Shown: positions 1,394 to 44,034, counted from the first letter of the stretch. The stretch is DNA of 64,000 nt from Patescibacteria group bacterium (GCA_038062115.1 JBBTXS010000009.1:27681-91680), one strand, 5' to 3'. Numbers and translations are program-made. Notes: a model not told the origin generated them from the sequence alone.

Positions 1394-1484
1394 GTCATTG
1401 CGAACCAGTCCGCAGACTGGTGTAGCAATCTCCAAATGCATGAGATTGCTTCGTCTCCGTCATCTGACGGATCCTCGCAATGAC
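1394..1484. repeat. GTCATTGCGA...TCGCAATGAC nested-palindrome element (subtype I)
   Basis: 10-bp outer stem, central GCAATCTC/GAGATTGC stem and two side hairpins. Same architecture as 30486-30562 and 31263-31343. Confidence 0.8.
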
Positions 1485-1630
1485 AAATACTTCACCTTCT
1501 ATCTTCTGTTAACAGAGGATACTTAAACGATTGTCTCAATATGTCAATCTGAATACAAGGATTTAGCAACCGGAAAACAATACGCTATCTTTCTCAATGT
1601 CCTTGAATACCACATGCAGGTGTAGTATTA

Positions 1631-2029
1631 TTGAGTAAGATGACAACAGTTGATCTTTCTTCTTACAAAAAATTATATCTTCAAACCGCTAAACAGTATA
1701 GCGATATTATATCAAAGAGTTACATTAAAATATTGCGAAACTCTTTGGACAAAGACGCATTGAAAAATATGTATATTAGCGCTCATTCCCTAAAAAGCCA
1801 AAGCCAAGCGATGGGATATGTAAAAATGACGGCTCTAAGTGGTATAATTGAGAAAACTATAAAAAATATTTTGGCCAATAATACTCAAATTCCCAACGAC
1901 TTAATGGTTGTTATTAAAGATGCAATAGAAAATGTTAAGCTTTCGTTGCGAAATATTCAAACAGAAAACAAAGAGAAAGATACAGATGTTATTAGTAAAA
2001 AGTTAGAAGAATATATTAGAAGGCTATGA
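1631..2029 (+). CDS. Stand-alone HPt (histidine phosphotransfer) domain protein
   Basis: ISAHSLKSQSQAMG matches the HPt H-box (AHxLKGxS-like). 132 aa. Its stop overlaps the next gene start (ATGA). Confidence 0.65.
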   Translation: MSKMTTVDLSSYKKLYLQTAKQYSDIISKSYIKILRNSLDKDALKNMYISAHSLKSQSQAMGYVKMTALSGIIEKTIKNILANNTQIPNDLMVVIKDAIENVKLSLRNIQTENKEKDTDVISKKLEEYIRRL

Positions 2030-2394
2030 AAGTATTGTTGATTGACGATGATAGATTTTTCCAAAAGTTCTATTCAGCTAAATTAAGAGAGCAAAACATA
2101 GAAGTTGATGTGGCATCAGATGGAGAAGAAGGCTTGCTAAAAATGCAGAGCATAAATCCAAATGTAGTTTTGCTTGATTTAATCATGCCAAAAAAAGATG
2201 GGTTTTCGGTGCTCGAAGCTCGGCAAATGGATGAAAATCTTAAAAAAATTCCAGTGATTGTTTTTTCTACATTAGGCCAAGAGAAAGATTTAGAAAAAGC
2301 AAAAAACTTGGGCGCAACAGATTATATTAATAAAAGTTTTTTTAATTTTGATGAAATGATGGTTAAAATTAGTAAGCATCATAACATTTATTAA
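2026..2394 (+). CDS. Single-domain response regulator (receiver)
   Basis: MKVLLIDDD...VVLLDLIMPKKDG...YINKS receiver motifs. Translationally coupled to the HPt gene. Confidence 0.85.
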   Translation: MKVLLIDDDRFFQKFYSAKLREQNIEVDVASDGEEGLLKMQSINPNVVLLDLIMPKKDGFSVLEARQMDENLKKIPVIVFSTLGQEKDLEKAKNLGATDYINKSFFNFDEMMVKISKHHNIY

Positions 2395-2403
2395 AACTGC
2401 CCT

Positions 2404-4089
2404 ATGCTTATTACAGATGAACAATTAAAATCGCTAATTTTGCATACTGGCATTACCGATAAGGCGGGTTTCGAAAAAATTGAAAAATATGCCAAAAATG
2501 CAGATATAAGTGTTAGCGATGCTTTGGTTGAGAAGGATATTATATCGGATGAGAATTTAGGTTTACTGATTTCAGATTTTCTAAAATTCCCCTTTGTAGT
2601 TTTGGCAAAAAAAAGTATCCCTAGTGAAGTCTTCCATATAATTCCAGAGAAAATAGCAAGAAAACAAAAAGTAATACCATTTGAGCTCGACGCAAATGGA
2701 GTTAAGCTCGCCATGGCTGATCCTTCTAGTAAAGAAGTGCAAGAAATGATCTCCAAAAAAATAGAAATGCCTGTTATTCCGTTTCTTGCAACAGAACAAG
2801 ACATTTATAACACTCTTCGAATATATAGAAAAAATCTGCAGGCATCCTTTGACGCTATGCTTAAAAAAGAACTTGGGCCAACAGATATCTTGGCTGGCAG
2901 GAATATACCCATAGCAAAGCTTGTTGATCTACTTATTAATTATGCCTATCAAGATAGGGCATCGGATATTCACATAGAGCCAGAGGAAAAATACTCACTG
3001 GTTAGGCTTAGAATTGATGGAATTTTGCAAGATGTTCTATTTTTGCCAAAAACCCTTCACGATCAGATAATAACAAGAATTAAGATTTTATCAAGACTAC
3101 GTACTGATGAACATCTTGCTCCACAAGATGGAAAAATGAGAATGGTTTTCGATAAAGAAGCAATAGACATAAGAGTTTCGATACTACCAATAACAGATGG
3201 TGAGAAAGCAGCACTTAGGTTACTAACGTCAAGGTTTGGAAAATTCTCACTCACTGATTTAGGAATGAATGAAAACGATTTAAAAAAAATTACCAAAGCG
3301 TACAGCAAATCGTATGGTATGATTTTGTCTACTGGTCCTACAGGATCGGGAAAAACAACAAGTATTTATGCAGTTCTTAAAATATTAAACACGCGCGAGA
3401 AAAATATTACCACAGTTGAAGATCCAGTAGAATATAAAATTAAAGGCGTTAATCAGATTAATGTCAACCCAAAGACAAATCTTACTTTTGCAAGTGGACT
3501 AAGGTCCATTCTTAGACAAGACCCAAACATAATTTTTGTTGGAGAAATTAGAGATATCGATACAGCAAGTATTGCGGTTAATGCCTCACTAACTGGTCAC
3601 TTGGTTCTTTCCACCCTTCATACAAATGATGCAGCAACAGCTCTTCCGCGCCTCATAGACATGAATGTTGAACCTTTCCTAGTTGCCTCCACTATAAATG
3701 TAATTATTGCCCAAAGATTAGTTAGAAAAATTTGCGAGATCTGTAAAGCTACACGTCCAATAACCGAGGAAGAACTGATGAAAAACTTGCCTAAAGATGT
3801 AGTCAAAAAACACTTTGGCAATAAGCAAAACATTACAATATACCAAGGAGATGGTTGCAAAATCTGTTATTCTACGGGGTATGCAGGCAGAATAGGCGTA
3901 TTTGAAGTTTTAGAAGTAACCCGAACGATTCGAGAATTAATTGTAAGAAGAAGTGATTCCGATGTAATTGCAGCCAAAGCGATAGAAGAAGGAATGACAA
4001 CAATGCTTGATGATGGATTAGATAAAGTAATAAAAGGTATAACTACGATAGAAGAGGTGCTTAGGGTTACTAGAATAGAACCTATGTAA
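2404..4089 (+). CDS. pilB: Type IV pilus assembly ATPase PilB/GspE family
   Basis: Walker A GPTGSGKTT, Asp and His boxes, C-terminal tetracysteine (CEICK...CKICYSTG), N-terminal T2SSE_N-like region. Confidence 0.9.
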   Translation: MLITDEQLKSLILHTGITDKAGFEKIEKYAKNADISVSDALVEKDIISDENLGLLISDFLKFPFVVLAKKSIPSEVFHIIPEKIARKQKVIPFELDANGVKLAMADPSSKEVQEMISKKIEMPVIPFLATEQDIYNTLRIYRKNLQASFDAMLKKELGPTDILAGRNIPIAKLVDLLINYAYQDRASDIHIEPEEKYSLVRLRIDGILQDVLFLPKTLHDQIITRIKILSRLRTDEHLAPQDGKMRMVFDKEAIDIRVSILPITDGEKAALRLLTSRFGKFSLTDLGMNENDLKKITKAYSKSYGMILSTGPTGSGKTTSIYAVLKILNTREKNITTVEDPVEYKIKGVNQINVNPKTNLTFASGLRSILRQDPNIIFVGEIRDIDTASIAVNASLTGHLVLSTLHTNDAATALPRLIDMNVEPFLVASTINVIIAQRLVRKICEICKATRPITEEELMKNLPKDVVKKHFGNKQNITIYQGDGCKICYSTGYAGRIGVFEVLEVTRTIRELIVRRSDSDVIAAKAIEEGMTTMLDDGLDKVIKGITTIEEVLRVTRIEPM

Positions 4090-42781: not shown

Positions 42782-43407
42782 AGTTTATAATAAGCTAAAC
42801 CCCGAAGACTAAATCTTAAGGCTCCAGCTTTATCGGCAGTGCTGTCGATAGAAAATGTATCGATACTAATTATTCTCTGCATATTTACTATCTTAGAAAA
42901 AAATGCCGATATATCTTCAAAATTACCACTGCCGCTTAAGGAAAAAGAATATGAGTAATATTTTTTTTCTCCAATATTTTGCCTAAAAAGTTCAACTGCA
43001 AGATTTTGTAAATTAGCAATACGGACATTCGTATTTTTAGCAATAGCTTGAATTTGTGCCAAAAGAAGAGGAACTTCAGGTCTCTCTGGTATCGAATCTA
43101 GCACATATGGAATATCTTCTTGGATGTCCGCATGCTTTTGCTGGAGAACGGAAAGGTTTCTGATTTTTTCCTCAAGACTATGCTCGACAAATTCATTATC
43201 AGATAGTTCTTTTTTTAACCTTACAATAGTTGAAAGTGTTGGATTTATGGCAAACATACCAAATAATGATATGGTTATCAAAGTAAGTATTATATTTGTA
43301 AGTTTTTGCGTTTGTTCATTTTTAAAGTTGGGAAGCGCTCCAAAATATCTAGCTTTTGTAATATCCTTAATGTTTTTGTTTGTAATGAACATATATTTAT
43401 CCAGCAC
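42778..43407 (-). CDS. PilO-like pilus assembly protein
   Basis: Cytoplasmic N-terminus, one TM, a coiled coil and a ferredoxin-like C-terminal region. Follows the PilN-like gene. Confidence 0.5.
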   Translation of the reverse strand: MLDKYMFITNKNIKDITKARYFGALPNFKNEQTQKLTNIILTLITISLFGMFAINPTLSTIVRLKKELSDNEFVEHSLEEKIRNLSVLQQKHADIQEDIPYVLDSIPERPEVPLLLAQIQAIAKNTNVRIANLQNLAVELFRQNIGEKKYYSYSFSLSGSGNFEDISAFFSKIVNMQRIISIDTFSIDSTADKAGALRFSLRGLAYYKL

Positions 43408-43423
43408 CGACTCGGTGCTGGAT

Positions 43424-43954
43424 TTATTGAAAATCAGCTGTAAAACTAACTGTTAAACCACGTGATGGCTTAATTTGTATGTTATCTAGATTTAACCTTC
43501 TTATCTTGGGATAAGTCTTTAAAGAGTTTATGAATAAATTTAGAGAAGATGTATTTTGTGCAATTGCGTTAATGCTTATTCGACTTTCATTCATAACTAA
43601 ATCGCTAAGCGTCAATCCTTCTGGTGCAAAATTTTGTATCTCTTGGAAAATTTTTATTTTCTCAACCCCACTATTGGAGAAAGTTGAAGCTAAAGCTAAA
43701 CGGTCTTGTAAATTACGATACTTATCTTCGCTGTTCTTATAAGACTTTACTATCAATTCTTGCTGTTTTATTTTTGAATGAAAGTCAATAAGTTGCCTAT
43801 CTAAAGAGAACCTGTATAAAAAGGCCAATAAGGCAATTAATTCAGTTATTATGGCCAATAAGCGACCAACTGTGAGTGCCCAAGCTATAAACTTGTCTAC
43901 AAAAGCTCCTTGTTTATTTTTGAGAAGATTTATAGAAAAAGTCTTTTTCTCCAT
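43424..43954 (-). CDS. PilN-like pilus assembly protein
   Basis: N-terminal FSINLLKNK motif (PilN INLLP), one TM, then a coiled coil. Confidence 0.55.
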   Translation of the reverse strand: MEKKTFSINLLKNKQGAFVDKFIAWALTVGRLLAIITELIALLAFLYRFSLDRQLIDFHSKIKQQELIVKSYKNSEDKYRNLQDRLALASTFSNSGVEKIKIFQEIQNFAPEGLTLSDLVMNESRISINAIAQNTSSLNLFINSLKTYPKIRRLNLDNIQIKPSRGLTVSFTADFQ

Positions 43955-43978
43955 ATCAACAGAATTTACGCGTTTTCT

Positions 43979-44034
43979 GTCATCCTGAACTTGATTCAGG
44001 ATCTTAGGAGATGCTGAAATGAATTCAGCATGAC
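43979..44034. repeat. GTCATCCTGAAC...TTCAGCATGAC double-hairpin element (subtype IV)
   Basis: Two adjacent hairpins (ATCCTGAA/TTCAGGAT and ATGCTGAA/TTCAGCAT) bounded by GTCATC and CATGAC. Confidence 0.7.

Follow-up and report, generated by a model that had tools for sequence, protein, structure and literature searches.

Repetitive extragenic palindromes (REPs) with a CGTC tag were defined in 2013 by Di Nocera, De Gregorio and Rocco (BMC Genomics 14:522; PMC3733652), who distinguished the families CGTC-1 to CGTC-4. The tag, CGTC or one of its variants TGTC and CCTC, is unpaired and located at one end of a hairpin composed of a stem of 8 to 9 bp, "almost invariably" with complementary AT first, a loop of 4 to 5 nucleotides (nt), and a short tail. 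These repeats occur mainly as inverted dimers, which fold separately or as one large stem-loop. Intragenic dimers are in frame and code for 20 to 30 residues, and in one species dimers are nested in longer palindromes. CGTC-1 corresponds to dRS3 of Neisseria and to RPE-6 of Rickettsia, and CGTC-4 to RPE-4, RPE standing for Rickettsia palindromic element. No transposase is associated with CGTC-tagged REPs, and they never flank RAYT genes. Here we report that a 64,000-nt stretch of chromosomal DNA from a Patescibacteria group bacterium (JBBTXS010000009.1, 27681 to 91680; 36% G+C), hereafter called the window, harbors a dispersed family of short structured repeats that are, judging from their sequences and predicted folds, members of the CGTC-tagged REP superfamily, alias dRS3/NTS or Ssn-related motifs (SRM).

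The link to an enzyme comes from Chenal et al. (2025, Nat Commun 16:2388; PMC11893778), who found SRMs to be spatially associated with ssnA, coding for a single-domain GIY-YIG protein of ~94 residues (cd10448). Four purified Ssn homologues bound the motif only as single-stranded DNA and in one orientation only, with cleavage a few nucleotides upstream of the tag. Binding depended most on the C that follows the hairpin and cutting most on the three bases before it, and the identity of the loop was dispensable. In Neisseria meningitidis the Ssn system modulates natural transformation.

An initial annotation of the window had described a family of nested palindromes bounded by GTCATT and AATGAC, with at least 12 loci at which an outer stem encloses inner hairpins. 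All 12 loci carry these termini, but the palindrome is not the structural unit. The repeating unit is a single oriented hairpin of 23 to 47 nt, with an unpaired YGTC tag, a stem beginning with AT, a variable loop that may hold a further small hairpin, and then ATC; the return arm is thus followed by a C-led tail in which the C is usually followed by T (14 of 18 clean units). The base before GTC is a pyrimidine in all 18 clean units (TGTC in 15, CGTC in 3), and the first stem pairs, A-T and T-A, are invariant in 24/24 unit arms (20 distinct rows). Ten of the 12 loci are inverted dimers with outward tags, the remaining two being one single unit and one symmetric unit. The locus at 16384-16454, annotated as partial, proved to belong to a complete pair (16352-16454), and what had been taken for a half unit at 14212-14236 is one whole unit, located on the minus strand.

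The stems show compensatory changes. Over the 24 unit arms, 86.9% of the stem cells were paired, compared with 20 to 44% when the partners were slid. Changes on both sides were found at six of the eight stem pairs, and the observed covariation score was reached by none of 500 shuffles, although the units were partly chosen by a five-pair requirement, so that only positions 6 to 8 are fully independent. Even with this restriction, at least seven pairs are reached by 13 of 20 stems. The four subtypes distinguished earlier were recovered as stem types, namely, ATTGCGA; ATTCTGG; ATTCCCG/ATTCCGT/ATTCCCA; and ATCCTGAA/ATGCTGAA. Units of the ATTCCCG group have an 8-bp stem and a loop of 4 to 5 nt, and those of the ATCCTGAA/ATGCTGAA group a stem of 8 to 9 bp and a loop of 3 to 5 nt. 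In ATTGC types the stem comprises 5 bp followed by an internal loop, and in ATTCTGG types 7 bp with loops of 5 to 29 nt.

Dimers with unlike stems show which structure is conserved. At 748-819 (ATTCCCGCG with ATTCCGTGC), at 43979-44034 (ATCCTGAA with ATGCTGAA), and at 5188-5253, the two units are predicted to fold as side-by-side hairpins, leaving GTC and GAC unpaired. This indicates that the conserved structure is the unit hairpin and that the "outer stem" of the other dimers is a by-product of the inversion of two units. The four-way junction proposed earlier is predicted for some copies and is not a conserved feature.

The scan for units (GTCAT, at least five Watson-Crick pairs, and ATC) gave 20 matches in the window, whereas 200 dinucleotide shuffles gave 1.9 ± 1.4. 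Two of the matches, at 3955-3998 and 18153-18215, are probably due to chance, which leaves about 18 real ones. A relaxed scan (7/8 pairs, any GTCWY) yielded 55 matches versus 46 in shuffles, i.e., noise, arguing that the list of 12 loci is essentially complete for the window. Each element was predicted to fold well above its own shuffles (z of -3.2 to -9.3). Together the elements cover 1.3% of the window and form GC-rich islands, as had been noted (48.6% versus 35.9% G+C). The analysis also covered 10 kb past the right end of the window, for 74 kb in all, with an 871-bp contig only on the left; the right-hand 10 kb contain five further units, with the additional stems ATTCTGAG, ATTTCGAG, and ATTCCGAG.

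Published descriptions of the superfamily match these units. The 28-nt NTS consensus CGTCATTCCCGCGMAVGCGGGAATCYRG matched 5187-5214 and 58993-59020 with one mismatch each (T for the first C), and it had no match in shuffles. The dRS3 core ATTCCC-N8-GGGAAT occurs five times in the window (0.01 expected), and the published SRM expression has four matches (0.12 expected by shuffles). These matches show that the statement that no named family exists for the repeats was wrong, as the units are CGTC-tagged REPs (PMC3733652) and NTS/Ssn-related motifs (PMC11893778). The more general view of a REP- or RPE-like dispersed structured family was right, the likeness to RPEs being real at the level of the superfamily. 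No part of the window matched an Rfam covariance model at gathering thresholds, a tRNA/tmRNA scan of the window found none, and a literature search with GTCATTGCGAG returned primers only.

The window elements share with CGTC-tagged REPs the unpaired tag, the AT-first stem, the short tail, the inverted homo- and heterodimers, the in-frame dimers, the nesting in longer palindromes, and the lack of a flanking transposase, and their ATTCCCG and ATCCTGAA types have similar stems (8 to 9 bp) and loops (3 to 5 nt). They differ in that their host, a Patescibacteria or Candidate Phyla Radiation (CPR) bacterium, is not among the five phyla reported, that the ATTGC and ATTCTGG types combine outer stems of 5 to 7 bp with loops of 5 to 29 nt holding a second hairpin where published loops have 4 to 5 nt, and that the tail reads CT(A/C) in most units, not CCA. 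With NTS/SRM and dRS3 they have in common the near-complete NTS (27/28) at two loci, exact dRS3 cores, and the oriented tag-hairpin-C design; the Neisseria repeats form large clusters around particular genes, whereas those of the window are dispersed dimers. Insertion in frame in conserved genes, here infB and an aminotransferase gene, is reminiscent of RPEs, although RPE-1 is a longer, unrelated palindrome of about 100 to 150 bp. Ten stop-free translations of the elements had no match in NCBIfam at E≤10, a search in which HMMER filters drop weak matches and for which the RPE content of the library was unchecked. REP/BIME, REPIN, and Correia/NEMIS elements are likewise short dispersed palindromes, often inverted dimers at gene boundaries, but REPs and REPINs linked to RAYT have a GTAG tag and a Y1 transposase, and Correia elements are characterized by TA duplications and by inverted repeats of 26 nt, all of which the window elements lack.

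The unit types of the window are found next to ssn in other genomes. The Ssn protein family comprises 4,474 clusters at 50% identity (E≤1e-10), and the stems present beside ssn genes cover every window subtype. A unit adjacent to ssn in a metagenome (locus L200) is identical to 30533-30562, the right unit of dimer G. The arrangement around the gene is not random. At locus L127, ssn has one outward-tagged unit on each side, at distances of 12 and 9 nt, and this cassette is followed by a gene-less dimer. Among 80 metagenomic loci, 53 have units on both sides of ssn, and at 34 of these the nearest units are in the + orientation upstream and the - orientation downstream (25% expected by chance; P = 2e-9). 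GIY-YIG genes (PF01541) also lie within dense fields of ATTGC-pattern units in Flavihumibacter soli (L079) and in a Dehalococcoidales metagenome-assembled genome (MAG; L111). The ATTGC-type pair pattern itself is widespread: a scan of one genome per species detected it in at least 120 genome blocks, L079 and L111 among them, that represent many phyla; the matches listed include Chloroflexota, Nitrospirota, Bacteroidota, Proteobacteria, Omnitrophota, Cyanobacteria, Planctomycetota, and Acidobacteriota and, within the CPR, Berkel-, Sacchari-, Gottesman-, and Daviesbacteria.

Further cassettes come from Candidatus Roizmanbacteria, to which two low-GC loci (L204 and L194) belong according to the names of exact-protein clusters. 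Roizmanbacteria are relatives of Levybacteria within Microgenomates. Both loci have the order dimer, 9 nt, ssn, 18 nt, right unit, and tattatgtctgGATTCCC is repeated on both sides of ssn. Because the right unit is repeated in this way, recombination between the two copies would leave exactly a gene-less dimer. In the Roizmanbacteria Ssn, Y9, Y20, and E67 are spaced exactly like Y6, Y17, and E64, the catalytic residues of N. meningitidis SsnA. The AT-rich spacers of the NTS-type dimers of the window loosely resemble that of the Roizmanbacteria dimer, which is suggestive only.

We also related the elements to the genes of the window and to syntenic contigs of relatives (L001 to L005; SecA 79 to 89% identical). 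In agreement with the initial annotation, the elements lie at gene boundaries and inside genes: ten loci are intergenic, eight between codirectional genes and two in divergent spacers, and two dimers are in frame, in infB and in a gene for a class I/II aminotransferase (30582-31868, minus strand). Spurious extensions of open reading frames (ORFs) by the repeats had also been described. The extension is read as spurious for the response regulator ORF 890-1441, whose receiver domain begins only at residue 61, and for MurB (29510-30517), with 335 residues versus 321 in a relative. For the pilin ORF 5119-5340, the translation suggests that the true ATG is likely located around 5246, within the terminal AATGAC.

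Comparison with the relatives revealed that the presence of the repeats varies. Unit D is part of a 44-nt insertion, flanked by TTTA, that the orthologous spacers of L001 and L003 lack, and its 25-mer occurs in identical form elsewhere in L001, at the 3′ end of Ham1. The Ham1-SerRS spacer of the window contains a dimer of another subtype than the Ham1 unit of L001. In infB, dimer E lies in a linker and is missing in L001 (474 residues versus 508). It is present in L003, where the inner hairpin of the left loop is different (25 nt versus 22) and where the loop of the right unit is plain and only 5 nt long, that of the window being 29 nt long with a hairpin. In both cases the lengths differ by a multiple of three, which argues for turnover of the loops with preservation of the outer stem and the reading frame. 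In a comparison of presence and absence among strains, heterodimer J was found in identical form in 10 independent contigs. The two copies of a composite element, MITE-1, are 100% identical across 125 nt, indicating that at least this composite was copied recently.

These data are best explained, with a probability of roughly 70% in our estimation, if the elements are CGTC-tagged REPs/SRMs that represent gene-less derivatives of unit-ssn-unit cassettes nicked by Ssn. When the DNA becomes single stranded, through replication, repair, or DNA uptake, each strand of a dimer would expose one correctly oriented hairpin. An Ssn-family GIY-YIG nuclease would bind this hairpin and, whichever the strand, nick a few nucleotides 5′ of the tag, which places the nick immediately beyond the dimer. 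The dimers would be the gene-less form of compact cassettes of ~350 bp, having arisen through loss of ssn, for instance by recombination between repeated units, and they would spread or persist by nuclease-triggered repair or recombination. In-frame copies would survive where protein linkers tolerate them. The existence of an Ssn gene in the host genome and the role of Ssn as the driver of the spread are inferred only. By analogy with the effect of Ssn on transformation in Neisseria, a link with DNA uptake is conceivable in the CPR host.

Several observations weigh against an Ssn-based origin. Neither the 64-kb window nor the adjoining 10 kb on the right contained an ssn or other GIY-YIG gene that we could find, and a GIY-YIG regular expression and tblastn with consensus sequences detected nothing in the window. 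No Ssn labeled as Levybacteria was among the matches listed, in searches that were aimed elsewhere or dominated by near-identical relatives from other taxa. A search of NCBIfam and PDB for a specific Ssn model gave only weak GIY-YIG relatives. The published SRM expression captures 4 of about 22 units and misses the other ~18. N. meningitidis SsnA is inactive on a changed stem sequence even when the hairpin is kept (PMC11893778). To account for at least four types of stem in a single genome, one would therefore have to assume several paralogues of Ssn, an enzyme that is relaxed, or copies that are relics. Mobilization of repeats by Ssn was raised in that work as a hypothesis and never demonstrated. 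Nor is the bracketing universal, as 19 of the 53 ssn loci have other orientations. The relatives L001 to L005 have only 0 to 2 units per 12 to 23 kb. Finally, no target-site duplication is present at MITE-1 copy 2 or at the dimers, and none is consistent overall.

The hairpins might instead work mainly as RNA, i.e., as stabilizers of transcript ends, attenuators, processing sites, or terminators, and be kept for that function. The position of 8 of the 10 intergenic copies between codirectional genes, several of them 0 to 25 nt from a stop codon, and the high predicted stability of the hairpins would fit such a role, and transcription of many REPs, with a function as RNA, is argued for by Di Nocera et al. 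(PMC3733652). We nevertheless consider it unlikely as the main explanation. T-runs are absent after all elements on both strands, indicating that they are not intrinsic terminators; the dimers are symmetric, which makes their orientation relative to transcription irrelevant; two copies are in frame within coding sequences; SsnA does not bind RNA (PMC11893778); and such a role would explain neither the conservation of the unpaired tag and tail nor the association with ssn. Individual copies may have a secondary effect as RNA in addition to their main role. Slightly less probable again is that the elements are classical MITEs (miniature inverted-repeat transposable elements), with GTCATT and AATGAC as terminal inverted repeats recognized by a DDE-type or other transposase. 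MITE-1 makes this idea attractive, given its two identical copies (713-837 and 46201-46325), its inverted ends of 12 to 13 nt, and the TTTGA on both sides of copy 1, and so does a third composite with different inverted ends of 14 nt. These features apply to the outer shells only and not to the naked dimers, however, and copy 2 of MITE-1 lacks the duplication. Dimers of unlike units share an "inverted repeat" of just 5 to 6 nt, no transposase was found in the window, the same ends occur across many phyla, where they bracket ssn and not transposase genes, and nesting of CGTC dimers in longer palindromes is already known (PMC3733652). Mobilization by a DDE-type enzyme is conceivable only for the composite outer shells.

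Mobilization as GTAG-type REPs/REPINs by RAYT, an IS200/IS605-like Y1 transposase, is very improbable. The general likeness is real, in that both are short palindromes with a tag, form inverted dimers, and are biased toward intergenic sites, but the tag is YGTC and not GTAG in 18/18 units, no Y1 transposase nor any other transposase family was matched among the window ORFs, and the 2013 survey separates CGTC repeats from RAYT genes altogether (PMC3733652). The suggestion to look for a TnpA(REP)/IS200-like mobilizing enzyme does not apply to this family, whose associated protein is the ~95-residue GIY-YIG Ssn. As for chance palindromes or a composition artifact, their probability is negligible: the two probable chance matches of the unit scan are all that they account for, whereas the counts are 10 to 500 times above those of shuffles, the stems show compensatory changes, and identical units are present in unrelated genomes.

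Identification of the repeats as CGTC-tagged REPs/SRMs removes a falsely "unnamed family" and ties it to a known enzyme system, and it extends the range of this system to an ultra-small groundwater bacterium of the CPR. What is new is modest, comprising the Levybacteria-like CPR host, the long-loop variants outside the published ranges of stems and loops, and the in-frame copy in infB. Equally modest is the quantitative support for bracketing of ssn by outward units, in the light of which the dimers without the gene resemble miniature derivatives. Both this statistic and the reading of the dimers as gene-less derivatives are additions of the present work and not claims of Chenal et al. How the repeats spread was left open by the 2013 and 2025 papers, and the present data bring two small supports. 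One is that the outward units that preferentially bracket ssn have the geometry of the gene-less dimers, and the other is that the repeated right unit of the Roizmanbacteria cassettes offers a simple route for gene loss.

A bolder proposal, which we put forward tentatively and consider doubtful, is that the dimers are nonautonomous derivatives of the ~350-bp unit-ssn-unit cassette that would be moved or copied through single-strand-specific GIY-YIG nicking without a transposase and would be active now in the CPR, with loops serving as landing pads for nested hairpins and with essential genes colonized in frame. If so, the unit-ssn-unit cassette would be among the smallest autonomous bacterial mobile elements known.

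Some further features of ssn loci were recorded. The two Roizmanbacteria cassettes (L204, 3895-4327, and L194, 2300-2770) occupy different loci and encode Ssn proteins ~92% identical by eye; one lies between a pilin gene and a glycosyltransferase-like gene, and the other adjoins pcrA. The right unit of L194 has a ~50-nt loop with nested hairpins. Accessions of neighboring proteins suggest that both loci belong to a single MAG, and hence the cassette may be multicopy. In a Candidatus Berkelbacteria contig (L076, 5190-5391), a truncated UPF0213-like GIY-YIG ORF of 53 residues (PF01541, E = 4.5e-4, below the cutoff) is separated by 19 nt from a GTCATTCTGAAC... unit that follows it where the contig ends. 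This arrangement could be a coincidence or reflect a second GIY-YIG clade tied to the repeats. Many Ssn proteins in databases have N-terminal extensions of 20 to 75 residues that are translated repeat (VIPAKAGI, SLRG, VILSERSE), and most ssn-bearing contigs are shorter than 2 kb, which suggests that gene calls are corrupted, and assemblies broken, by the repeats. As they generate spurious ORF starts and probably interrupt assemblies, annotators of CPR genomes should mask them. The coordinates of the window elements are collected in Table 1.

Table 1 Repeat units, dimers, and composite elements of the window
Feature	Position	Strand	Description
Dimer A, inverted	748-819		Unit 748-771 (+), GTCATTCCCGCGAAAGCGGGAATC; unit 795-819 (-), GTCATTCCGTGCTTGACACGGAATC; 23-nt AT-rich spacer; core of MITE-1 copy 1
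MITE-1 copy 1	713-837		125-nt shell around dimer A; terminal inverted repeats of 12-13 nt, ACGAGTTTCGCA; TTTGA on each side
Dimer B, inverted, ATTGC stems and inner hairpins	1394-1484		Units 1394-1430 (+) and 1444-1484 (-); divergent intergenic region
Dimer C	5188-5253		Unit 5188-5211 (+), NTS 27/28; right unit to 5253 (-), degenerate; between pilC and pilin gene
Single unit D	14212-14236	-	GTCATCCTGAACTTGGTTCAGGATC; directly after stop codon
Dimer E, inverted, ATTCTGG stems	16352-16454		Units 16352-16391 (+) and 16408-16454 (-); in frame in infB (IF-2), ~34 residues
Dimer F, inverted, ATTCTGG stems	24794-24869		Unit 24794-24816 (+); degenerate unit 24832-24869 (-); between Ham1 and SerRS
Dimer G, inverted, ATTGC stems	30486-30562		Units 30486-30519 (+) and 30533-30562 (-); spurious MurB start
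Dimer H, inverted, ATTGC stems	31263-31343		Unit 31263-31296 (+); degenerate unit 31306-31343 (-); in frame, ~27 residues
Symmetric unit I	31864-31908		GTCATTCTGG...CCAGAATGAC; tag on both strands; inner hairpin; overlaps start of annotated aminotransferase ORF
Heterodimer J, inverted	43979-44034		Units 43979-44003 (+, ATCCTGAA) and 44010-44034 (-, ATGCTGAA); 6-nt spacer; between rpsT and pilN
MITE-1 copy 2	46201-46325		Holds dimer K: units 46236-46259 (+) and 46283-46307 (-)
MITE-2 composite	58922-59042		14-nt inverted ends, GTAACCGTTCAGGA; dimer L: units 58954-58977 (+, ATTCCCAT stem) and 58996-59019 (-, NTS 27/28)

The window carries the housekeeping genes pilB, pilC, nusA, infB, pnp, secA, serS, lysS, murB, lepA, and groEL. 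The best relatives of its SecA are metagenome proteins with 83 to 89% identity, followed by many labeled Candidatus Levybacteria, and exact matches of GroEL and other window proteins were found in Hainich groundwater assemblies (wells H51 and H41; 0.1 µm fraction). For the ClpB-like ORF, no identical protein was on record. On these protein matches, the host is a Levybacteria-like member of the CPR.

Two sets of type IV pilus genes, at 2404-10803 and 41424-43954, comprise pilB, pilC, and several prepilin-like genes, and then pilN/pilO-like genes beside rpsT. The nusA-infB spacer is filled by an extremely AT-rich imperfect inverted repeat of 107 nt (15384-15490), with arms of 53 nt that are 77% complementary, which is unrelated to the GTCAT units. 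Another structure that is not a GTCAT unit is the perfect 30-nt palindrome TTTTTAGTCCGCCAG/CTGGCGGACTAAAAA at 63565-63594, within ORF 62366-63904. The lysyl-tRNA synthetase ORF (26278-28389, minus strand) codes for 703 residues, versus 484 in L001 and 479 in L004, which lack the ~220 additional C-terminal residues (26278-26940); by its sequence, this extension looks like an HD-type domain.

Four small gene sets of the toxin-antitoxin-like or defense type are present in 36806-38038, 46633-47341, and 54554-55271, namely, a stand-alone nucleotidyltransferase, two MazE-PIN pairs, and one pair of HEPN and nucleotidyltransferase. One of the MazE-PIN pairs comes directly after MITE-1 copy 2. A 71.8-kb Hainich contig (locus L128) stops near position 56,950 of the window, in a stretch of higher G+C content (44% over 56 to 58 kb) that contains duplicated hypothetical genes with similar N termini (55283-56245 and 57087-57794) and may be a strain-variable island.

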